From: an uncultured Muribaculaceae bacterium
Lineage (GTDB): Bacteria > Bacillota_I > Bacilli_A > RF39 > UBA660
Direction of reading: 5' to 3'
Assembly (NCBI GenBank): GCA_964372175.1
Contig: CAYJPP010000004.1
Span: 1 to 38,932 of the forward strand
Length of the DNA stretch: 38,932 nucleotides
The position numbers and the translations under genes were made by a program. Each line of letters begins with the position of its first letter. Position 1 is the first letter of the stretch. The notes beneath the pieces are model-generated. The model worked only from the letters and a program-made list of their open reading frames with translations, was not told where the DNA came from and made no database searches. This document shows, in pieces, positions 3,378 through 38,932 of the stretch.

Positions 3378-5384
3378 ATGAATTTAATTATAGTCGAATC
3401 TCCTAGTAAAAGTAAAACTATTGAGAAATATTTAGGCTCTGATTACAAAGTTTTATCTAGTAAAGGGCATATTAGAGATTTATCTACGAAAGGAAAATTT
3501 GGATTAGGTGTTGATTTAGAAGACAATTTTAAACCAGATTATGTTTCAATAAAAGGTAAGTCTAAACTAATAACAGAGTTGAAAAAAGAAGTTAAAAATG
3601 CAGATATGGTATATTTAGCAACAGATCCCGATCGTGAGGGTGAAGCTATTTCTTGGCATTTATTTGATGCTTTAGGATTAAAAAAATATGAGCGTATAGT
3701 CTTCAATGAAATAACAAAAACAGCAGTTGTTAATAGTTTTAAAAGCGCGAGGCAAATTGATAATGATTTAGTGAATTCACAAGAAACTAGACGTATTTTA
3801 GATAGAATAATTGGTTTTAGATTAAGTAAACTAATGCAAGCCAAAACAGACGGAAAATCGGCTGGTAGAGTTCAATCAGTTGCTTTAAAATTAATTGTTG
3901 AAAAAGAACGTGAAATAGAAGCGTTTAACGCAGAAGAATATTGGTCTATAACAGGGGAATTTGATTTATTTAACGCTAATTTGTTTCAATATGATAATAA
4001 AGATATTGAGTTAAAAACAGAAGAGCAAGTTGATAAAATAATGAATGTTTTGACAAATAAGTTTATTGTTGTAAGTGTTGATAAAAAAAATAAAGCTAAA
4101 AAAGCGAACCCACCATTTATAACAAGTACCTTACAGCGATTAGCGTCATCTAAATTAGGTTTCAACGCTAAAAAAACAATGATGGTTGCTCAAAAGTTAT
4201 ATGAAGGTATTGAACTAGAAAGTGAAACAACAGGATTAATATCTTATATGCGTACTGATTCTATTAGACTATCAGATGAATTTATAAAAAGTACTTATGC
4301 ATATATAGGAAATAAGTATGGTAAAGAATATATTGGGTATGTAAAACAGAGTAAAAATAAAGATAATGTTCAGGATGCACATGAGGCAATAAGACCAACT
4401 AATATTAATAATACTCCGGAAAGTGTTAAACCTTATTTAAGTGATGATGAATTTAAATTATATCGCATGATTTATTATAGAGCTTTAGCCAGTTTAATGA
4501 ATGATGCTAAAACTGATAACACAACTGTTATATTAGATAATAATAACTATCAGTTCAAAGCAAATGGTCAAGTTATTGTTTTCGATGGTTATTTAAAAGT
4601 GTACAGTGACTATGAAGATACAAAAGAAAATAATCTACCTAATTTTGATAAAGAAATTACTTCAAATGATATTATTAAAGAACAACATTTTACGAAACCA
4701 CCAGCAAGATATTCAGAAGCATCTTTAATTGCTGAAATGGAAAAGTTAGGAATAGGAAGACCATCTACTTATGCATCAACGGTAGATACCTTAAAAAACA
4801 GATCCTATGTTAATATAGTAGAAAAAAGATTTCATCCAACAGAAATAGGTATAGAAATTACTGATAAATTAGCAGAATGCTTCTCTCATATTATAAACGT
4901 TGAATACACAGCTAATATGGAAGAGCAATTAGATGATATTTCAGAAGGAAAATTAGTATGGTATGAAACATTAGACAAATTTTATAAAGATTTCGAACCA
5001 GCTTTAAAAGAAGCATTTGACAAATTGCCTAAAAAAGAAGCACAAAAAACAGGTGAAGTTTGCCCAGACTGCGGGAATGATTTAGTTATTAGAAAAGGGC
5101 GCTATGGGGATTTTACGGCATGTAGTAATTACCCAGAATGTAAGCATGTTAAACAAGAAAAAAAAGAGGAAAAAGAAATAGTTGATTGTCCTAATTGTGA
5201 TGGTAAAATAATTGAAAGAACATCTAAAAGAGGGAAAATATTTTATGGTTGTAATAACTTTCCTAAATGTAAAACAGCTTTTTGGGATCAACCGATAGCA
5301 GAAAAATGTCCGCAATGTAATAGCTTATTAACAGTTAAAAAAGATGAAACAAAATGTTCATCTTGTGAATATATTAAGGTGTAA
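3378..5384 (+). CDS. topA: DNA topoisomerase I
   Basis: Toprim N-terminus LIIVESPSKSKTIEKYLG. Active-site ISYMRTDS. Three C-terminal C4 zinc ribbons. Start moved to the ATG at 3378, which follows GAGGAAGGTG. Confidence 0.95.
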   Translation: MNLIIVESPSKSKTIEKYLGSDYKVLSSKGHIRDLSTKGKFGLGVDLEDNFKPDYVSIKGKSKLITELKKEVKNADMVYLATDPDREGEAISWHLFDALGLKKYERIVFNEITKTAVVNSFKSARQIDNDLVNSQETRRILDRIIGFRLSKLMQAKTDGKSAGRVQSVALKLIVEKEREIEAFNAEEYWSITGEFDLFNANLFQYDNKDIELKTEEQVDKIMNVLTNKFIVVSVDKKNKAKKANPPFITSTLQRLASSKLGFNAKKTMMVAQKLYEGIELESETTGLISYMRTDSIRLSDEFIKSTYAYIGNKYGKEYIGYVKQSKNKDNVQDAHEAIRPTNINNTPESVKPYLSDDEFKLYRMIYYRALASLMNDAKTDNTTVILDNNNYQFKANGQVIVFDGYLKVYSDYEDTKENNLPNFDKEITSNDIIKEQHFTKPPARYSEASLIAEMEKLGIGRPSTYASTVDTLKNRSYVNIVEKRFHPTEIGIEITDKLAECFSHIINVEYTANMEEQLDDISEGKLVWYETLDKFYKDFEPALKEAFDKLPKKEAQKTGEVCPDCGNDLVIRKGRYGDFTACSNYPECKHVKQEKKEEKEIVDCPNCDGKIIERTSKRGKIFYGCNNFPKCKTAFWDQPIAEKCPQCNSLLTVKKDETKCSSCEYIKV

Positions 5385-5388
5385 TATA

Positions 5389-5709
5389 ATGAAAATTAGA
5401 ATTACATTAAATAATGAAAATAAAATTTATGAGTGTATAAAAAATAATCATATTTACAATTATAAAGATGAGGATGTTTTAGTGGCGATTGATGTAGTTA
5501 ACAATGTTATTGTAAGAAAAAGTATTGATTATGAGGTTTGTTTAAAGTTTAAAATAGATGAAGTTACTAACAATAATTGTTTATATAATAATAATGAATT
5601 CGTTTTAGAAGTAAAAACATATGAAATAGATACAGAACCTTATTATATAAAATATGAAATATTAGGTGGAGAAACAATTGAATTAAAATTGGAGGAAATA
5701 GATGATTGA
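5389..5709 (+). CDS. small conserved protein, probably DUF1934/YwiB-like
   Basis: AAGGTG SD lies inside the topA 3' end. Sits immediately upstream of argS and overlaps it, as ywiB does in Bacillus. The sequence resemblance itself is weak. Confidence 0.55.
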   Translation: MKIRITLNNENKIYECIKNNHIYNYKDEDVLVAIDVVNNVIVRKSIDYEVCLKFKIDEVTNNNCLYNNNEFVLEVKTYEIDTEPYYIKYEILGGETIELKLEEIDD

Positions 5710-7390
5710 AAAGTTACAAAAAATATTAAAAAAGAGTTTTAATGAATGTGGATATAATATTGACCCTAAGGTAATTATATCTAATCGTCCAACTTTATGT
5801 GATTATCAATGTGATGAGGCTTTTAAACTAGCTAGTAGTTGTAAAAAATCTCCAATTGAAATCGGTCAAGAAGTAGTTGCAAATATTAATAGTCTTTCTG
5901 ATTTTAATAAATTGTTTAGTAAAGTGGAATTTATAAAACCAGGTTTTATAAATATTAGTTTAAGTGACGATTTTATTAATGAGACTATATCTTCTATGTA
6001 TAATAATGAGTATTTTGATATTAAGAGAACGGATAATCCTAAGAATTATTTTTTAGACTATGGAGGACCTAATGTTGCTAAACCATTGCATGTTGGCCAT
6101 TTACGAACTGCTATAATAGGTGAATCAATTAAAAGGATTATAAAGTTTAAAGGCCATAATACATTAGCGGATGTCCATTTAGGTGATTTCGGATTACAAA
6201 TTGGGCAAGTAATTTATGCTGTTTTAGAAGATGGATTAAAAATAGAAGAAATTGATTTAAAGTATTTAGATGAAGTATACCCTAAAATGAGTAAACTTTG
6301 TAAAGAAGATAAAGAATTACTTGAAAAGTGTGCCTCAATCACTAAAAAATTGCAAGATGGTAACAATGAATATGAACTGATTTGGAAAAAAATATGTGAA
6401 GTATCAGTTGGAGACATTAAAAGGTTGTATAATTATTTAGATGTCGAGTTTGATTTTTGGTATGGTGAGAGTGATGGATATAAATATATAAAAGAAATCA
6501 CAGATTTATTAAATCAAAAGAAATTACTAAAACTTAGCGATGGGGCGCAAATTATTGAAGTTAATGAAGATACAGATAAATTAGAGATACCACCCTTGGT
6601 ATTTCAAAAGAGTAATGGTGCATATTTATATGGAACAACAGATTTAGCCTCTATTTATGAGCGTGTGACTAAGTATGCATCAGATAATATCTTATATATT
6701 GTAGATAACAGACAATCATTACATTTTAAACAATTATTTAGAGTCTGTAATAAATTGGGAATAAATGCTAATTTGCAACATTTACCGTATGGAACTGTAA
6801 ATGGCAGTGATGGTAAACCGTTTAAAACGAGAAGCGGTGACGCATTTAAGTTAGATGACCTGTTTAAAGAAATAAAAGAATTTTTTGTCAATTCAAAAGA
6901 AACAAACAAAGATATGAGCGATGAGGATGTTAATATAATTATAAATTCTATTATTAAATATGCTGATTTACAAAATAATAGAGAAAAAGACTATATATTT
7001 GATATTGAAAAATTTTCAAATGTTGTTGGTAAAACAGGACCATATTTATTATATACATATGTCAGAATGGAAAAAATATTAAAAAATGAAGAATTAAATA
7101 TTGCTAATTTCAATAATATAATATATAATGTTATAGACCGTGATTTAAGAATAAAAATATTACAATTAGAAAACTCTTTTGAACTAGCTTTTAAAGAAAA
7201 AAAACCTAATTATATTGCTGAATATATATATGATTTAGCTGTATGTTGTAATAGTTTTTATCAAGCAAATCATATTAACGGTTTAGAAGATGATGTGAAA
7301 CAACAATGGTTATTATTAATAGATTTAACTAATAAAATAATTAAAGAATTATTAAATTTATTAATTATTGATGTTCCGTCACAAATGTAG
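5702..7390 (+). CDS. argS: arginine--tRNA ligase
   Basis: HIGH-type motif PLHVGHLR. Class I ArgS length and overall pattern. C-terminal DALR-like anticodon-binding region. Confidence 0.95.
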   Translation: MIEKLQKILKKSFNECGYNIDPKVIISNRPTLCDYQCDEAFKLASSCKKSPIEIGQEVVANINSLSDFNKLFSKVEFIKPGFINISLSDDFINETISSMYNNEYFDIKRTDNPKNYFLDYGGPNVAKPLHVGHLRTAIIGESIKRIIKFKGHNTLADVHLGDFGLQIGQVIYAVLEDGLKIEEIDLKYLDEVYPKMSKLCKEDKELLEKCASITKKLQDGNNEYELIWKKICEVSVGDIKRLYNYLDVEFDFWYGESDGYKYIKEITDLLNQKKLLKLSDGAQIIEVNEDTDKLEIPPLVFQKSNGAYLYGTTDLASIYERVTKYASDNILYIVDNRQSLHFKQLFRVCNKLGINANLQHLPYGTVNGSDGKPFKTRSGDAFKLDDLFKEIKEFFVNSKETNKDMSDEDVNIIINSIIKYADLQNNREKDYIFDIEKFSNVVGKTGPYLLYTYVRMEKILKNEELNIANFNNIIYNVIDRDLRIKILQLENSFELAFKEKKPNYIAEYIYDLAVCCNSFYQANHINGLEDDVKQQWLLLIDLTNKIIKELLNLLIIDVPSQM

Positions 7391-7444
7391 ACAATTTTTT
7401 TAATAAAATACATAATATAATTATAGTTAAAGTGGAGGTAATTA

Positions 7445-7849
7445 ATGAAACTTAAAAATATGAAAAAAGAAGAATTAGAGATTATGTCTTATACTGATTT
7501 GACAGAAATGATTTTAAAAGAAGAAAAAAAATCTTTAACAACACCTGATATATTTAAAAAGATTTGTGAATTATTAGAATACTCAGATGATCAGTTTTCA
7601 GAAAAAATAGGAGACTTTTATACTTCTCTAACGCTTGATAAAAGATTTGCATTCTTGGATAATAATAAATGGGATTTAAGAGAAAAGCATGCTGTTGTTT
7701 TATCAATTGATGAAGATGAAGAAGAAATTATTGATGAGGTTGAAGAAGAATTAGAAGAAGAAATCATTGATGAAGAAGTAGATGATTTAAATGATGATAT
7801 GGTTGAAGATTTAACGATAGTAACAGAAGATGAATTAGATGAAGACTAA
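7445..7849 (+). CDS. rpoE: DNA-directed RNA polymerase delta subunit
   Basis: HARE-HTH-like N-terminal half (SYTDLTEMILKE...FYTSLTLDKRFAFLDNNKWDLREKH) plus a poly-acidic D/E tail. GGAGGT SD. Confidence 0.85.
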   Translation: MKLKNMKKEELEIMSYTDLTEMILKEEKKSLTTPDIFKKICELLEYSDDQFSEKIGDFYTSLTLDKRFAFLDNNKWDLREKHAVVLSIDEDEEEIIDEVEEELEEEIIDEEVDDLNDDMVEDLTIVTEDELDED

Positions 7850-7859
7850 TTCTTTTTTA

Positions 7860-7888
7860 TTGACAATTTAAGTATTATAAAATATACT
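7860..7888 (+). promoter_or_regulatory. candidate promoter for the ASCH-PHP-MBL-YaiI operon
   Basis: TTGACA (7860-7865), 17 nt, TATACT (7883-7888). The predicted transcription start falls almost on the SD, so read-through from rpoE is an alternative. Confidence 0.4.
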
Positions 7889-31858: not shown

Positions 31859-32851
31859 TTATAATAAAACACTGAAACTTATGGCAATCAATGAAGCGAT
31901 TAGTCCTATAATCCAAAATAGTTTAACTATTTCTGCTTCATTCCAGCCTAGTTTTTCAAATGTGTGATGAATAGGAGTCATTAAAAAGACTCTTTTTTTT
32001 GTGAATTTATAATATATTCTTTGTATTATGCAGGTAGTTGTTTCGATTACAAATACTATTCCAATTAATATTAATAGTAGTTCATGTCTTGTTATGATTG
32101 CTATGGCTCCTAGGGTTGCTCCTAGGGATAATGAGCCGGTGTCGCCCATAAATATTTTGGCTGGATTAACATTAAATACTAAGAATCCTAATATTGAGCC
32201 TACTAATGAAAAACACAATAGGGCTATACTTTCGTATCCTTCTAACCATCCTGTGTTGTATGTTATAATTCCAAAGGTTAAGAAGGCTATTAATGTTAGA
32301 CCGCCTGCTAGGCCATCTAGTCCATCTGTTATATTAACTGAGTTTGATGATGATAACAAGACGAACAAAATAAATAATCCATATACAAAGCCCATTTCTA
32401 TTTTTATATCTAGTGAATGAATCCATAATAGTGGTTCGTTGCCTGATTTCATAAATAGATAGAAAAATATAATGGCTATTATCACTTGGAGTATAAGTTT
32501 TTTTCCTTCTGATAGTCCTTTATTATTATTTTTAATTATTATTAAATAATCATCTATAAATCCTATTAGACCGTAGCTTAAAAATGTAAATATAATAATT
32601 ATTAAATTATATGATATGTTTATTTTATTTGTTATAAGCATTACTAACATTATTATAATGGTTGATGTAATAAATATAAGTCCTCCCATGGTGGGCGTTC
32701 CTATTTTTTTTTGATGGCTTGTTCTTAGGTAATCATTTAGTCTTTGGTTTGCTTTTAACTTTTTTAATATAGGTATTAAGATAAATCCTATCAACATTGC
32801 TAATATAAAACTAGCAAGTAAAACAATAACTGCTTTTGTTAATAATAACAT
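31859..32851 (-). CDS. mraY: phospho-N-acetylmuramoyl-pentapeptide-transferase
   Basis: NITDGLDGLAGG, FMGDTGSLSLG and PIHHTFE motifs. 10-TM pattern. Confidence 0.95.
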   Translation of the reverse strand: MLLLTKAVIVLLASFILAMLIGFILIPILKKLKANQRLNDYLRTSHQKKIGTPTMGGLIFITSTIIIMLVMLITNKINISYNLIIIIFTFLSYGLIGFIDDYLIIIKNNNKGLSEGKKLILQVIIAIIFFYLFMKSGNEPLLWIHSLDIKIEMGFVYGLFILFVLLSSSNSVNITDGLDGLAGGLTLIAFLTFGIITYNTGWLEGYESIALLCFSLVGSILGFLVFNVNPAKIFMGDTGSLSLGATLGAIAIITRHELLLILIGIVFVIETTTCIIQRIYYKFTKKRVFLMTPIHHTFEKLGWNEAEIVKLFWIIGLIASLIAISFSVLL

Positions 32852-34762
32852 TTATTCATCTCCTAACAATAATTTTATGGTATCTCCTTCATATACAAGG
32901 GTATTAGATGTTGGTGTTTGATGTATAACTTTATTTCCAGAACCAGAAAATTCAATTTTAAAATCTTTTAATAGTTTTATTGCTTCTTCAATGTTTATAT
33001 TTGTAACATTAGGTATTCTTATTTGTTTTTTATCGGGATAAACATATTCTTTATCTAATCCGTTTTCTCTTTTTTCTATATTTAATGTATTTATTATGTC
33101 TAACATAACGTTTTTAGCGATAGGCGCAGCTACTGTCCCACCATATTGTGTGACTCCTTTGGCGTTATCTATGGCTATATAAACTACTACTTCTGGATCG
33201 TCTGCCGGTAAGAAGCCGATAAATGATGTTATGTAATTTCCAACTAAATAACTACCGTTTTCAACTTTTTGAGCTGTTCCTGTTTTTCCGCCAACTCTAT
33301 AATCGGCAATATAAGCATTTTTACCTGATCCGTTTGCGACAACTGATTCAAGGGCATATCTTATTTTATCTGAGGTGTCATCAGATATTACTTTTCTAAT
33401 AAGATTAGGTTCTGTACTTTTAATTACGGTGTTTGTTTCAGGTTCATTGATACTTTTAACAATATAAGGGGTATATAATAAACCGCCATTAATAGTTGCA
33501 GAAACGGCTGTTACTTGTTGAATAGGTGTGACTGATACTCCCTGGCCAAAGGCTGTTGTTGCTAGTTCTAGATTATTAACATTATCTAAATTAAATAATA
33601 TTCCTGATGCTTCTCCATTTAAATCGACATTAGTTTTCTCGCCAAAGCCAAAGTTATCAATGTAACTAAATAGTGTTTCTTTCCCTAATTTTAGACCTAA
33701 ATTAACAAAACCTGGGTTACATGAGTTTTCAACTACTTGTAAATATGTTTGATGACCATGGCCTCCATGTTTCCAACAGTGTAGGGTGGTTCCATCAACA
33801 TTAATTGAACCATCATCATAAAATGAGTCGTTATCTAAATCTATTAATTTTTCTTCTAGTGCCGCTGCTAAGGTGATTATTTTAAATGTTGAACCTGGTT
33901 CGTATGTCATCCAAATAGGTAAATTTCTATTGATGACTTCAGTTGTGTAGTTTTGATATTCAGAAGGAGTGAAGGTTGGTCTTGAAGATAAGGCTAGTAT
34001 CTCACCAGTATCAACATCCATAACTAGTCCTAGGGCTTGATCTGGATTATATTTACTTATGGCGTTGTTTAATTCTCTTTCTAATGCTAATTGAATGTTA
34101 TAATCAATGGTTAAATATAAATTCATACCGTTTTGTGGTTGTTCATATACTTCTGCTAGTTCTAGTCTGTTTCCCTTCGCATCACTGAAATATTTAATGG
34201 AACCATAACTTCCTGTTAAATATTCATCATACATTAGTTCTAAACCGGATAGTCCTTGGTTATCTATTCCAACAAATCCTAAGGTATGGGCTAGTAGTTC
34301 ATTATATGGATAATTACGTTTACTTTCTTTTAATAAATAAACACCAGCTAAATTTAAAGCACTTATTTCATCGGCTAATTGATAATCTAATCTTCTTCCT
34401 TCGGGATGAATTCTTTCAATGGATGTTTTTTTAAAGACATGTTCTTCTATTTCTTCGTAAGATACATTTAATTTTTCAGCTAATATTGTAGTTGTGTATT
34501 CTTTATCTATAATTTGGTTAGGTATTAATACTATCGAAGTTGTGGTTATATTATCTGCTAAAACAACACCATTTCTATCATATATAATACCTCTATCTGC
34601 TTCAACAGGTAAGTTTCTACTCCATAAACTAGTTGCTAAATGATTTAAATTATCATAAGATACAACTTGAACATACAATATTCTAACAATTATAGTAATA
34701 AAGAGTATTAATAAAATTAATAATAATATTTTTGTTCTGACATTAATATTTTTTACAAACAT
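32852..34762 (-). CDS. class B penicillin-binding protein (FtsI/PBP2B/SpoVD type) with one C-terminal PASTA domain
   Basis: N-terminal TM anchor. STFK, SCN and KTGTA transpeptidase motifs. AGGTGA SD. Confidence 0.9.
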   Translation of the reverse strand: MFVKNINVRTKILLLILLILFITIIVRILYVQVVSYDNLNHLATSLWSRNLPVEADRGIIYDRNGVVLADNITTTSIVLIPNQIIDKEYTTTILAEKLNVSYEEIEEHVFKKTSIERIHPEGRRLDYQLADEISALNLAGVYLLKESKRNYPYNELLAHTLGFVGIDNQGLSGLELMYDEYLTGSYGSIKYFSDAKGNRLELAEVYEQPQNGMNLYLTIDYNIQLALERELNNAISKYNPDQALGLVMDVDTGEILALSSRPTFTPSEYQNYTTEVINRNLPIWMTYEPGSTFKIITLAAALEEKLIDLDNDSFYDDGSINVDGTTLHCWKHGGHGHQTYLQVVENSCNPGFVNLGLKLGKETLFSYIDNFGFGEKTNVDLNGEASGILFNLDNVNNLELATTAFGQGVSVTPIQQVTAVSATINGGLLYTPYIVKSINEPETNTVIKSTEPNLIRKVISDDTSDKIRYALESVVANGSGKNAYIADYRVGGKTGTAQKVENGSYLVGNYITSFIGFLPADDPEVVVYIAIDNAKGVTQYGGTVAAPIAKNVMLDIINTLNIEKRENGLDKEYVYPDKKQIRIPNVTNINIEEAIKLLKDFKIEFSGSGNKVIHQTPTSNTLVYEGDTIKLLLGDE

Positions 34763-34815
34763 GTTATCACCTGTTTAAATGTATGAAATTATTTATAGTT
34801 TATTATTATTTCAAT

Positions 34816-34837
34816 AAAAAAATCCTTAATTTAAGGA
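34816..34837 (-). terminator. weak candidate intrinsic terminator after the T5orf172-like gene
   Basis: Minus-strand TCCTT-AAATT-AAGGA hairpin followed by T7. The stem is short. Confidence 0.45.
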
Positions 34838-34840
34838 GTT

Positions 34841-35491
34841 TTAACTATTTAATATATTTAACAGATCATTATATAATTTTATTCTAGTCTCAGCATTAAA
34901 ATTAGTATCTAAAACTAAATCATTAGGAAAATCGATATAGTTTTTTCTATCATAATGACTTTTACAATGTTTAATAAATTCATCTTTTTCGCGTAATATT
35001 TCTAAAAGTTCTTCTGGAAGATTTTTCTTATATTTATTTATTAAATCATCTTTTACTTTGTTATAGTCTTTTTTTGTAATGCTTTTTATGGAAGTACTTT
35101 CTTTTATAAATGGGTATACACTGTAACCATCTTCGACAAATTTAATTAATTCATTTTCATTTACTAAATATTCATAGATCAATTTATTAGCGATGTCATA
35201 ATCAATGTTGTAAACTTCTAAATTTGATAATTGTTTATTTTTAAGTTTTTTAATCTCTTTGATAGCTTTATCACATTTATTCATGTTTTTAACTTCAAAT
35301 TTTGTTGCAATTATTTTACCAGTTACAAAGTCACAATAAGGTGTGAAGCCGTGATAAGAGGTTCTTTTATGTTGAACTAATCTATCTTTTTCATTATCTA
35401 TATTTCCTGATTTCCCAATTTTAATAAAATCATTACATGTACCTACTATTAATTTAAATACATATATATATCCTTGTGTATTTTTACTCAT
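34841..35491 (-). CDS. T5orf172 / MUG113-type GIY-YIG-like domain protein
   Basis: GYIYVF (GIY-like), FIKIGKS (YIG-like), a following Arg (DRLVQH) and EVYN (Glu) within the first 100 aa. GGAGGT SD. Confidence 0.65.
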   Translation of the reverse strand: MSKNTQGYIYVFKLIVGTCNDFIKIGKSGNIDNEKDRLVQHKRTSYHGFTPYCDFVTGKIIATKFEVKNMNKCDKAIKEIKKLKNKQLSNLEVYNIDYDIANKLIYEYLVNENELIKFVEDGYSVYPFIKESTSIKSITKKDYNKVKDDLINKYKKNLPEELLEILREKDEFIKHCKSHYDRKNYIDFPNDLVLDTNFNAETRIKLYNDLLNILNS

Positions 35492-35645
35492 ATTTACCTC
35501 CGTATATATATTATAACAATAAATTTTATATAGTTCAATTTTAATTAATAAAGTGTGAACCTAAGTATATTTTTAATTATGTGGAATATCTTTATTATTA
35601 TGGTGATATAAGTATGATAGTTAGAATTAAAAAAGGAGAGATAAT

Positions 35646-36158
35646 ATGACATTTGATTTGTTTGAAAAAGAGCTAGTAAGTGAATATAAAAATATAATTC
35701 TAGGATACACAAAAACTAAAAATCAATTAGTTATTAGAAAATCAGTTTTAGAAGAAGTTATAACAGAATTAGTACCTTATACAAAAAATAAAGAATTAGA
35801 AATATTGAAACAAATGAGTAATCAAGCGCTTTTTATTAGTGATTTACATTTTAAAGTTAAAACAAGACAAGCAATAAACTATTTAAGTACATTAGGTTCA
35901 TATGCTTTGGCAACAACTAGTTTTGAATGTGGATTCTCACCAGCTTTGACAATTTTATTTGTTGGAGGTTCAATAATTGGAGGTAAAAACATTTATTTGA
36001 ATGCTAGTAAACTTAGTAAGTTGCGTAAAATAAAAATGTACACCGATAATCGTGATGTTTTAAAGAACTCTGTAATTACGCCTAACAATGTAACAACTTA
36101 CGAATTAGAACAAATACAAAATAATGTTAAAGCTTTAAAATTAGGAAATTCTAAGTAA
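35646..36158 (+). CDS. hypothetical protein with central hydrophobic hairpin
   Basis: AGGAGAG SD. Two short hydrophobic segments (LSTLGSYALATTSF, ALTILFVGGSIIGG). No recognisable motif. Confidence 0.55.
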   Translation: MTFDLFEKELVSEYKNIILGYTKTKNQLVIRKSVLEEVITELVPYTKNKELEILKQMSNQALFISDLHFKVKTRQAINYLSTLGSYALATTSFECGFSPALTILFVGGSIIGGKNIYLNASKLSKLRKIKMYTDNRDVLKNSVITPNNVTTYELEQIQNNVKALKLGNSK

Positions 36159-36170
36159 ATTTGTAATATA

Positions 36171-36194
36171 AAGGTGATAAAATCATCTTTTTTT
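36171..36194 (+). terminator. intrinsic terminator after the hypothetical gene
   Basis: AAGGTGAT / ATCATCTT stem (one G-U pair) with a 3-nt loop, then a T-run. Confidence 0.55.
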
Positions 36195-36203
36195 AATAAA
36201 AGG

Positions 36204-36232
36204 TTGCTTATATTAGTAATATAGTGTATAAT
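36204..36232 (+). promoter_or_regulatory. sigma-A-type promoter upstream of the DEAD-box helicase gene
   Basis: TTGCTT (36204-36209), 17 nt, TATAAT (36227-36232). Confidence 0.55.
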
Positions 36233-36255
36233 TATCCAGTTGAAAGAGAGAAATT

Positions 36256-37842
36256 ATGGAAAAAAGTTTTAAAAGTCTAGGATTATCTAGCAAGGTTTTA
36301 AGTGCGATTGAGGCACTTGGTTATAATACTCCTAGTGAAGTACAAAGTGAAATTATCCCGTTAATATTAGAGGGAAGAGATGTGATAGGTCAGGCACAAA
36401 CAGGAACTGGTAAAACATTAGCGTTTGCGTCATCTATCTTATCTAAAATAGATATTAAAAAAAATGTTGTTCAAGCGATTATTTTAACTCCAACAAGAGA
36501 GTTAGCAATTCAAGTATGTGATGAGTTTAAAAATTTAAATGATTCATCAAGTTTTGATTTATTAGCTGTATATGGTGGGGATTCGATTGAAAGACAAATT
36601 AATGCTTTAAGAAAAGGTGTTGATATTGTTGTTGGAACACCTGGTAGGGTACTTGATTTAATTAGAAGAGGTAAATTAAAAATAGCTGATATTAAGTATT
36701 TTGTTTTAGATGAAGCAGATGAAATGTTAAATATGGGATTTATTGAAGATATTGAAGAAGTTTTAAAAGCAACAAATGTTGAAAAACAAATTTTGATGTT
36801 TTCAGCAACTATGCCTAAGCAAATTAAAAGATTAGCTGAAAATTATATGACTGATTCAGTTCATGTTGAAATTAAAAAAGATACTGAAACATCTAACAAT
36901 GTCTCACAGTATTATTGTATGGTTAATGAAAAGCATAAAATAGAAATATTATGTCGTATATTAGATTTTAAAGAGTTATTAAAAACTATTATATTTTGTC
37001 AAACTAAAAAAGAATGTGATGAATTAGTTAATGAGTTACAACACAGAGGGTATTCTGTTGAAGCTATGCACGGAGATATTTCTCAAAATATGAGATTACA
37101 AACCTTAGAAAGATTTAAAAAAGGATCATTTAATTTTTTAATAGCTACTGATGTAGCGGCTAGGGGAATTCATGTTGATGATATTGATTTAGTTATTAAT
37201 TATAGATTATCACGTGAATTTGAAACTTATGTTCATAGAATTGGTAGAACAGGAAGAGCTGGAAAAGTAGGAGAGTCGTTAACTTTAATTACACATAAAG
37301 ATTTAAAATTATTAAGTGAATTAGAAAGATTCACAAAATCTAAATTAACAGAAGTAAATATTCCGACATTTAATGAAATAATAGAAACTAAGTATTTATC
37401 AACTATTGAAAAAAGTAAAAAAGTAGAAAATGTAGATAAAGCTTTAGAGTATGTTAGAGATTTAAATAAAGGGGACTTAATTAATTTAGCAGCTTCATTA
37501 CTTAAATATAATGTTGATAAATCAGTTGGGTCACTACATCAAGAAGATATAGTTGTAAAAGATAAAAGAAGTGGTCAAAAAGTAGATAAACATAAAACAA
37601 GAGTATTTGTTACTGTTGGTAAGAAAGACGGAGTTAAAAAAGGTAGTTTATTAGATTATCTAAAAAAAGAAACTAATCTTAACAAAGACAACTTTACTAA
37701 TATTGAAGTTTTAAATACTTATACTTTTATTGATATTGATAAAAAAGTAGTTGATAAATTTATAAAATTAATGAAAAATAAAAGATATAATGGTAGAGAA
37801 GTGAGAATTGAAATATCTAAAAAAAGTAATAAAAATAAATAA
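36256..37842 (+). CDS. DEAD-box ATP-dependent RNA helicase with DbpA/YxiN-type C-terminal RNA-binding domain
   Basis: Q-motif region, AQTGTGKT, DEAD, SAT and HRIGRTGRAG. The C-terminal about 75 aa resemble the DbpA RNA-binding domain. Confidence 0.9.
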   Translation: MEKSFKSLGLSSKVLSAIEALGYNTPSEVQSEIIPLILEGRDVIGQAQTGTGKTLAFASSILSKIDIKKNVVQAIILTPTRELAIQVCDEFKNLNDSSSFDLLAVYGGDSIERQINALRKGVDIVVGTPGRVLDLIRRGKLKIADIKYFVLDEADEMLNMGFIEDIEEVLKATNVEKQILMFSATMPKQIKRLAENYMTDSVHVEIKKDTETSNNVSQYYCMVNEKHKIEILCRILDFKELLKTIIFCQTKKECDELVNELQHRGYSVEAMHGDISQNMRLQTLERFKKGSFNFLIATDVAARGIHVDDIDLVINYRLSREFETYVHRIGRTGRAGKVGESLTLITHKDLKLLSELERFTKSKLTEVNIPTFNEIIETKYLSTIEKSKKVENVDKALEYVRDLNKGDLINLAASLLKYNVDKSVGSLHQEDIVVKDKRSGQKVDKHKTRVFVTVGKKDGVKKGSLLDYLKKETNLNKDNFTNIEVLNTYTFIDIDKKVVDKFIKLMKNKRYNGREVRIEISKKSNKNK

Positions 37843-37846
37843 TTTT

Positions 37847-37873
37847 GAACTATATTAAATAGTTCTTTTTTTT
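37847..37873 (+). terminator. intrinsic terminator after the helicase gene
   Basis: GAACTAT / ATAGTTC stem with ATTAA loop, then a T8 run. Confidence 0.75.
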
Positions 37874-37899
37874 ATTTATAACAATAAATTTAAATAGAG

Positions 37900-38932
37900 G
37901 TGAGCGGTATTAAAAGATTACTTTTATTTAGTATTGTTTTTATATGTATTATTGGTTTAATTATGGTTTATTCGTCTTCTTATATATGGGCAGAGTATAA
38001 ATTTGATGATGCCTTTAAATTCGTTAAAAATCAAGGACTATTTTTTATTATAGGGTTATTTATGATGTTATTTATAAGTAAAATAGATTATAATTTATAT
38101 GAGAGAAAATCAAAATTAATCTTATTTATTTGTGTAATGTTATTGATATTAGTTTTAATACCAGGGATAGGAACTATTAGAAATGGGTCTAGAAGTTGGT
38201 TTGGGTTAGGTTCTTTTGGAATTCAACCTTCTGAATTTGCTAAATTAGGGTTAATTATATTTACAGCTAAGTATTTAGCTAATAAAGAAAAAATCAAATC
38301 ATTAAAAAGTGTTTTACCAGTTTTATTATTAGTATTACTAGTTTTTGGATTAATTATGTTACAACCAGATTTTGGAACCGGAATAATAATTGTGATAAGT
38401 GTTATAGGTATGCTTTTTATATCAGGTGTTGATATGAAGTATTTTATTAGTATGGGAATATTAGGAATAACTTTAATAGTAGGACTTATTATAGCAGCCC
38501 CTTATCGTTTAGAAAGAATTATGTCTTATTTAAATCCTTGGAGTGATCCACTAGGTTCAGGATTTCAAATAATACAAAGTTTATATGCAATTGGACCTGG
38601 GGGGGTATTTGGGTTTGGTATAGGTAATTCAAGACAAAAACATTTTTATTTACCCGAACCACAAACCGATTTTATATTTTCAATTATATGTGAAGAATTA
38701 GGTTTTTTTGGAGCACTATTAATTATTGTTTTATTTGCAACTATTTGTATAATTGGTTTTAAAATTTCGCGAGAATGTGATAATAAATTTGGCAAGTATT
38801 TATCATTCGGGATAATATTTCAATTATCTTTTCAAGCAATATTAAATTTAATGGTTGTTGTTGGTTTAATACCAGTAACGGGTGTAACGTTACCATTTTT
38901 ATCTTATGGAGGGTCTTCTTTATTAATAACTT
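37900..38932 (+). CDS. ftsW: FtsW/RodA/SpoVE (SEDS) family peptidoglycan glycosyltransferase, 3'-truncated by the window end
   Basis: Absent from the ORF track because no stop is reached. The translation reads ...GSRSWFGLGSFGIQPSEFAKL...EPQTDFIFS...GVTLPFLSYGGSS. The start is uncertain (GTG 37900 or ATT 37909). Confidence 0.85.
   Translation, partial: MSGIKRLLLFSIVFICIIGLIMVYSSSYIWAEYKFDDAFKFVKNQGLFFIIGLFMMLFISKIDYNLYERKSKLILFICVMLLILVLIPGIGTIRNGSRSWFGLGSFGIQPSEFAKLGLIIFTAKYLANKEKIKSLKSVLPVLLLVLLVFGLIMLQPDFGTGIIIVISVIGMLFISGVDMKYFISMGILGITLIVGLIIAAPYRLERIMSYLNPWSDPLGSGFQIIQSLYAIGPGGVFGFGIGNSRQKHFYLPEPQTDFIFSIICEELGFFGALLIIVLFATICIIGFKISRECDNKFGKYLSFGIIFQLSFQAILNLMVVVGLIPVTGVTLPFLSYGGSSLLIT

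Follow-up and report, generated by a model that had tools for sequence, protein, structure and literature searches.

The two accessory genes of the segment studied here most probably function independently of each other, in an intergenic site prone to rearrangement, and one of them, p216, would be a stand-alone mobile nuclease-like gene; the probability of this explanation was put at roughly 0.55. The segment lies in a window of 38,932 nucleotides (nt) of contig CAYJPP010000004.1, to which the coordinates refer, and corresponds exactly to the gap (34763-36255) between the start of a class B penicillin-binding protein (PBP) gene and the start of a DEAD-box helicase gene. The source genome (G000) is an assembly of 1.1 Mb in 75 contigs with a GC content of 27.2%, and G009, G019, G003, G042 and G006 are congeners of it. 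A preliminary description of the same DNA had presented p216 and its divergent neighbour p170 as a two-gene island of a nuclease-like protein and a small membrane protein. Its account of the open reading frames (ORFs), the spacer, and the Shine-Dalgarno sequence and motifs of p216 was correct when compared with the ORF list and the sequence itself. Both p216 and p170 are real genes, each with homologues, and neither has a described function, again as had been stated. The features of the locus are:

32852-34762, minus strand: class B PBP gene, 636 amino acids (aa), with mraY as the next gene
34785-36185, no strand: accessory block of about 1.4 kb, delimited by alignment with G009, in which similarity ends at 34784 and returns at about 36186-36194
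34841-35491, minus strand: p216, an ORF of 216 aa
35138-35491, minus strand: T5orf172 (GIY-YIG clan) domain of p216, residues 1 to about 118, from Pfam, family profiles and Foldseek
34844-35137, minus strand: C-terminal domain of p216, residues about 119-216, from the conserved alignment and the AF2 model
35492-35645, no strand: AT-rich spacer of 154 nt between the divergent p216 and p170, holding a promoter-like site for p216
35646-36158, plus strand: p170, an ORF of 170 aa with a GGAG Shine-Dalgarno sequence, a divergent extra paralogue in an unnamed family of small two-helix membrane proteins
36256-37842, plus strand: DEAD-box helicase gene, with an ftsW-like gene next

The block was absent from the closest congener. 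The PBP and the helicase are each 82% identical in G009, where their genes are also divergent neighbours, lie 153 nt apart and have conserved flanks, and where both block genes are missing. In a global alignment of the window with the G009 locus (L012), the approximately 1.4 kb found here was replaced by about 65 nt of unrelated spacer. The G009 junction is therefore empty-site-like and the block is accessory, in agreement with the accessory insertion that had been proposed from the sequence. We infer that the block was gained in this genome rather than lost in G009. Only G009, G019, G003 and the more distant G042, a small subclade, had the helicase orthologue, and in G019 and G003 its upstream neighbours were other genes. 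At 22.1% (p216) and 25.5% (p170), the GC content of both genes was below the genome's 27.2%.

The nuclease-like assignment of p216 in the preliminary description held at the level of the family and of the fold. The protein carries the motifs GYIYVF (residues 7-12) and IKIGKS (residues 23-28), together with R37, E92 and N95. Searched alone against Pfam PF10544, p216 scored 17.8 bits (E 0.0049, profile positions 1-95 of 101), which is below the cut-off of 20 bits, yet of the five aligned family members, with a full-length identity of 42-45%, four matched T5orf172 (best E 4.1e-8) and three matched MUG113; the T5orf172 membership of p216 is therefore one of transitive homology. Among the nine homologues, Y10, K24, G26, R37 and E92 were invariant, Y8 was either Y or F, and N95 was kept in eight. 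Such a set of residues has been described for the T5orf172 subfamily of GIY-YIG (PMC10448857); the positions were equated with the catalytic residues of characterised enzymes by motif pattern and by that published description, not by structural superposition. A Foldseek search of the p216 AF2 model (built from the five-sequence alignment, with a mean predicted local distance difference test score, pLDDT, of 81.8) against BFVD returned many viral T5 Orf172-domain proteins over the 110-120 or so N-terminal residues, with a probability of 1.0, a best E value of 1.5e-4 and a TM-score (target) of 0.76. Against the PDB, the whole-protein model gave chance-level matches only (best E 0.49).

The C-terminal half of p216, which had been called unrecognisable, had no consistent match in Pfam or the PDB. 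It contains conserved residues (C176, S178-H179, N184, L194-D195 and R203), and residues 141-216 form a block of the model with a pLDDT of 87-92, preceded by a low-scoring linker (residues about 131-140). No sequence match was found for this domain in the PDB, and the whole-model Foldseek search, in which the domain was not searched separately, gave nothing significant. A Pfam scan of the nine isolated C-terminal halves gave scattered noise, the GAD-like hits in three of the nine (E 0.01-0.05) covering about 27 residues. No hydrophobic or transmembrane segment, no DUF4041 and no other Pfam hit was found in p216, and searches of both p216 and p170 with PADLOC, NCBIfam and PHROGs gave nothing significant.

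The p216 family is rare. Among 5.8 billion proteins, the relatives of p216 amounted to one other cluster (44% identity), and nine homologues were found in genome collections. Relatives with p216 homologues bear the labels uncultured Bacilli, uncultured Tenericutes, Erysipelotrichaceae and Candidatus Coprovivens, which suggests that the source genome too belongs to the gut Bacilli with reduced genomes. Within the order, the family was present in five of 401 genomes, each in a different genus. Hits were obtained in two of 24 congeners searched and only one of them was full-length, as the lower-scoring hit (G004, E 4e-4) covered only residues 52-133 inside a frame of 1324 aa. No match was found by tblastn in phage and plasmid collections, nor in a scan of viral contigs.

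These homologues lay in mobile or defence-type contexts. In seven of the nine other loci, the homologue was the first gene opposite a divergent XRE-type helix-turn-helix (HTH) gene and was followed by membrane proteins; small serine recombinases lay within a few kb of the XRE-linked homologues where the contigs reach that far. In the other two loci, the homologue followed a type II N6-methylase gene and a gene for an unknown 403-aa protein (L045), or preceded a gene with a NERD-like motif recognised by eye (L082). No neighbour was conserved across these contexts, and the upstream 403-aa and 402-aa proteins of L045 and L082 are unrelated. The flanking genes tested, among them those for membrane proteins, had no counterpart in this genome, apart from one similarity of 30 aa. 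As p216 homologues lie in mobile or defence-type DNA with no conserved neighbour, p216 behaves as a single-gene module.

An uncharacterised element of gut Bacilli recurred in four of the loci (L041-L044), consisting, in this order, of the divergent XRE HTH gene, the homologue of p216, a gene for a membrane protein (about 440 aa), several unknown genes and a serine recombinase gene. The small serine recombinase was found in L041 and L042, and a Peptidase_C1-like end of the membrane protein was confirmed in L042. Three further loci (L083-L085) had the XRE-p216 core in common with this element, but had other, smaller membrane proteins.

The second gene of the block, p170, is an additional, rapidly evolving copy from a family of small membrane proteins specific to the lineage. 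A word-based search with p170 found nothing, and its paralogue in the same genome (contig C13) is 26-27% identical to it. With a profile of the two copies searched exhaustively against 1.8 billion representatives, 15 proteins were recovered at E <= 1e-3, 14 of which were 161-235 aa long. The family has an N-terminal block (FILGY..I..N.III...PYSKE.E..IL..ME.Q), a middle block of two hydrophobic helices and a C-terminal tail (K.LKK.KLYL.N ... ITIN.ID..S...LK). No member had a Pfam domain or an informative name, a sequence-profile search of the PDB with the family found nothing, and the AF2 model of p170 (two-sequence alignment, pLDDT 49.7) was too poor to use. The central two-helix hairpin that had been described in p170 was upheld for residues 95-111, which are strongly hydrophobic, but residues 76-93 were marginal. 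Two clear hydrophobic segments were present in 12 of the 13 aligned relatives, and p170 probably has both ends in the cytoplasm, with two membrane helices in most family members.

The family was found in 12 of 30 congeners, usually as a single copy, and its neighbourhoods were chromosomal and of housekeeping type, including yigZ and radical-SAM genes in this subclade, a transketolase-like gene (by eye) and dnaJ. The C13 copy of this genome occupies the syntenic yigZ/radical-SAM neighbourhood of the subclade. The same yigZ neighbourhood holds one family gene each in G019 and G003 and two in G009, and none of these genomes has one at the PBP/helicase junction. In the family tree, p170 joined the copies of its own subclade loosely (support 90/89), on a very long branch.

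The two families did not co-occur. None of the nine other p216-family loci contained a p170-family gene, and no T5orf172-like ORF was recognised near the other p170-family genes (17 genes in 16 loci), as judged without a p216-family or T5orf172 profile. With both families rare, this is a small sample. Within it the pair reading fails, and p216 and p170 are most probably not partners; the preliminary description had itself named a lack of co-occurrence elsewhere as evidence against its two-gene system. p216 homologues occur in XRE/serine-recombinase or methylase/NERD settings and p170 relatives in housekeeping ones, which offers no support for a pair.

A functional pair, in which a nuclease-type effector would work with a small membrane protein in abortive infection, as a toxin-antitoxin system or as a split membrane-tethered nuclease defence, was accordingly considered very doubtful. 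The genes are divergent over a common spacer and both are missing in G009, some p216 homologues adjoin methylase or NERD genes, and SNIPE (PD-lambda-1), a membrane-bound GIY-YIG defence nuclease of Escherichia coli, demonstrates that a membrane-anchored GIY-YIG nuclease can serve as a defence principle (PMC13190303). SNIPE links such a nuclease to the membrane by the same logic as the proposed pairing, but does so within one polypeptide chain, which carries a transmembrane segment, DUF4041 and, at its C-terminal end, the nuclease (PMC13190303). In p216, in contrast, the nuclease-type domain is N-terminal, the transmembrane segment and DUF4041 are missing, and the PADLOC models, which found neither protein of the block, gave no match. 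The absence of co-occurrence and the housekeeping settings of the p170 family, with its syntenic chromosomal copy, also count against a pair. A split, two-protein system of SNIPE type, in which the membrane protein would hold or gate the nuclease so that only incoming DNA is cut, seems more improbable still; if true, it would give the p170 family its first function.

The explanation that we favour treats the two genes separately. The N-terminal domain of p216, with its conserved Tyr10, Arg37 and Glu92, would cut or at least bind DNA, and the family-specific C-terminal domain would select the target. As a single-gene mobile module, p216 would have arrived alone, unaccompanied by the other genes of the integrative elements or methylase-linked operons in which its relatives are found. 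Either it was copied, in the manner of homing, into a site cut next to conserved genes, or it is all that survives of a mobile element. On this explanation p170 would be an independent extra copy from a chromosomal family, with no role as a partner. Both the nuclease activity of p216 and its mode of mobility are predictions from its sequence and its relatives.

The closest published parallel is with the T5orf172 genes of ICP1, T5-like and other lytic phages (Barth et al. 2023, PMC10448857). T5orf172 is a subfamily of GIY-YIG, and the catalytic Glu was shown experimentally for one member; the genes are free-standing homing endonuclease genes with a terminal nuclease domain and a DNA-binding domain, variably present and clustered near essential genes (PMC10448857). 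The variable presence of p216, its family's several unrelated contexts and its intergenic position beside conserved genes fit such free-standing homing endonuclease genes (PMC10448857). Like them, p216 has a terminal T5orf172 domain joined to a second domain, varies between close relatives, is intergenic beside conserved genes of essential type and forms a single-gene module. Unlike them, it is chromosomal, in what is probably a gut member of the Bacilli with a reduced genome, with no BLAST match in the phage and plasmid collections, and its second domain matches nothing known, being neither CapR, DUF723, a DUF4397 zinc finger nor RepA_N. In Odn of ICP1 and CapR of PLE, as far as PMC8263062 is relayed in PMC10448857, the T5orf172 fold with a swapped targeting domain serves as a site-directed nuclease or as a DNA-binding regulator, which are two candidate roles for p216. 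To the extent that these proteins are described there, p216 has no similarity to them outside the core domain and lacks both RepA_N and the zinc finger.

Several observations weigh against the favoured explanation. The original description of T5orf172 domains was as DNA-binding modules in regulators of the Bro type. The seven homologues directly downstream of a divergent XRE regulator would suit a regulatory role within mobile elements equally naturally. The score of p216 alone fell just under the Pfam threshold, and its C-terminal domain had no detectable DNA-binding signature by Pfam, PDB sequence search or whole-model Foldseek. No terminal inverted or direct repeats and no target duplications above the AT-rich background were found at the block borders, where a 17-nt inverted pair (34761/36167) was one of 123 such pairs. 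Variable presence with an empty site, as expected of a homing gene, was found at G009, but the differing block contains two genes rather than one, and one-gene homing alone does not explain it. Finally, the PBP/helicase junction, which would polarise gain against loss, was absent from the outgroups checked.

In the main rival explanation, p216 would not be an active nuclease but a regulator that binds DNA, derived from a mobile element and using its T5orf172 domain in a Bro- or antirepressor-like way; it would be what remains, inert or domesticated, of an integrative element that has decayed. This is unlikely in our estimate, although the position of most homologues opposite a repressor-like XRE gene in serine-recombinase elements speaks for it, as do the T5orf172-derived CapR, which acts as a transcriptional repressor (PMC10448857), and the absence from this genome of any other gene of such an element. 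The conservation of Tyr, Arg and Glu across homologues with only 42-45% identity goes beyond the needs of a DNA-binding scaffold, however; p216 is intact, with a strong Shine-Dalgarno sequence and a promoter-like site, and the two homologues in methylase or NERD settings have no XRE gene. It is less probable again that the block was ancestral to the lineage of G000 and G009 and was deleted in G009, with p170, and perhaps p216, as residents. Such a history would agree with the loose grouping of p170 with its own-subclade copies, with its GC content near the genome value and with the lack of the junction in any outgroup, and a duplicated motif in the G009 spacer (see below) could be a scar. The rarity of the p216 family, its otherwise mobile contexts and its low GC content argue in the opposite direction, as does the location of the p170-family genes of G019, G003 and G009 near yigZ rather than at the PBP/helicase junction.

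These results leave current understanding unchanged, and their value lies in a candidate for a test of nuclease activity and target specificity. p216 adds a rare, compact architecture, in which a T5orf172 domain is followed by a C-terminal domain of some 100 aa that matches nothing, from poorly studied gut Bacilli with reduced genomes, at a time when stand-alone T5orf172 genes are being linked to homing and to phage-host conflict. The work on p170 defines an unnamed family of small membrane proteins that is covered by no Pfam model. The picture of the locus is also corrected, as the true mraZ-rsmH-ftsL-PBP module is located elsewhere and the second PBP gene, with its surroundings, is a hotspot of mobile DNA in the genus.

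The preliminary description had placed the two genes in the slot where mraZ-rsmH-ftsL would belong, upstream of the division PBP, and this premise was not sustained. On contig C22 of the same genome (L078, G000:C22:5000-14500, minus strand, genes 3871-7868), mraZ and rsmH are contiguous with an FtsL-like gene (93 aa) and a gene for a class B PBP of 781 aa that bears PASTA. As this module is intact, nothing has been displaced, and the PBP gene of the window, before mraY, is therefore a second class B PBP gene. The cell-division cluster of this genome is thus split between its two class B PBP genes. The gene upstream of the second PBP gene differed in nearly every congener, examples being AbiEii, which Pfam confirmed, rplT- and infC-like genes, and a gene whose N-terminus resembles adenosine deaminase by eye.

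The second PBP gene seems to be a target of repeated integration and could be dispensable or switchable. In G006 (L079, G006:C6:22300-29300), the orthologue of the window's PBP gene was interrupted near residue 418. The insert, some 4.1 kb long, encodes a large serine recombinase of 553 aa, AbiEii of 283 aa and a 200-aa AbiEi-like protein. In at least 15 other congeners, the PBP gene ran into a contig end at about residue 296, 352 or 415, a pattern that would fit the frequent presence of mobile or repeated DNA within it. The PBP gene, mraY and ftsW were colinear in several congeners (L019-L021 and L040, compared with window positions 31859-38932). Both G009 and this genome have PBP-mraY in inverted orientation with respect to helicase-ftsW, which places the block at an inversion junction.

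The start of p216 has a GGAGGT Shine-Dalgarno sequence, read directly from the DNA. The other signals in and around the block were as follows:

35538-35510, minus strand: promoter-like site of p216, TTGAAC-17-TATAAT, with a preceding TG, from a sequence scan
34816-34837, minus strand: terminator-like hairpin 3' of p216, UCCUUA/UAAGGA, 6 bp, then U7, from RNA folding
36170-36194, plus strand: terminator-like hairpin 3' of p170, AAAGGUGAU/AUCAUCUUU, 9 bp, then a U run, from RNA folding

The preliminary description had given each gene its own terminator. AU-rich hairpins with U runs do follow both genes, but they are weak and neither was called by a consensus terminator scan. The hairpin of p170 (-7.2 kcal/mol, shuffle z -2.65) was the only one of the two to exceed shuffled sequences, that of p216 (shuffle z -1.39) being no better than the shuffles. 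Rfam and tRNA scans of the region were empty.

In the G009 spacer (L012, G009:C31, 3409-3480), a duplicated CATATAATCACCT motif was observed on the minus strand, corresponding to a start codon and a ribosome-binding site. The spacer also contains a mini-ORF of 16 codons whose stop overlaps the ribosome-binding site of the PBP gene, and which could be a leader peptide or a scar.

Some members of the p170 family were found in other settings. A 283-aa member lies between mraY and ftsW in L049 (GCA_947600015.1, CANQFX010000014.1, 4001-4852), in a cell-division cluster of another genome where a 549-aa protein with no Pfam hit is encoded between the PBP gene and mraY. A role of p170 as a cell-division protein was considered and dropped, as the placement between mraY and ftsW was one of about sixteen contexts. 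In two congeners, a p170-family gene lies beside a sigma-70-like gene recognised by eye (L066, G014:C36, 2135-3544; L071, G015:C15, 2216-2914); one of these two genes is downstream on the same strand and unusually long (at least 469 aa, running off the locus), and the other is divergent.

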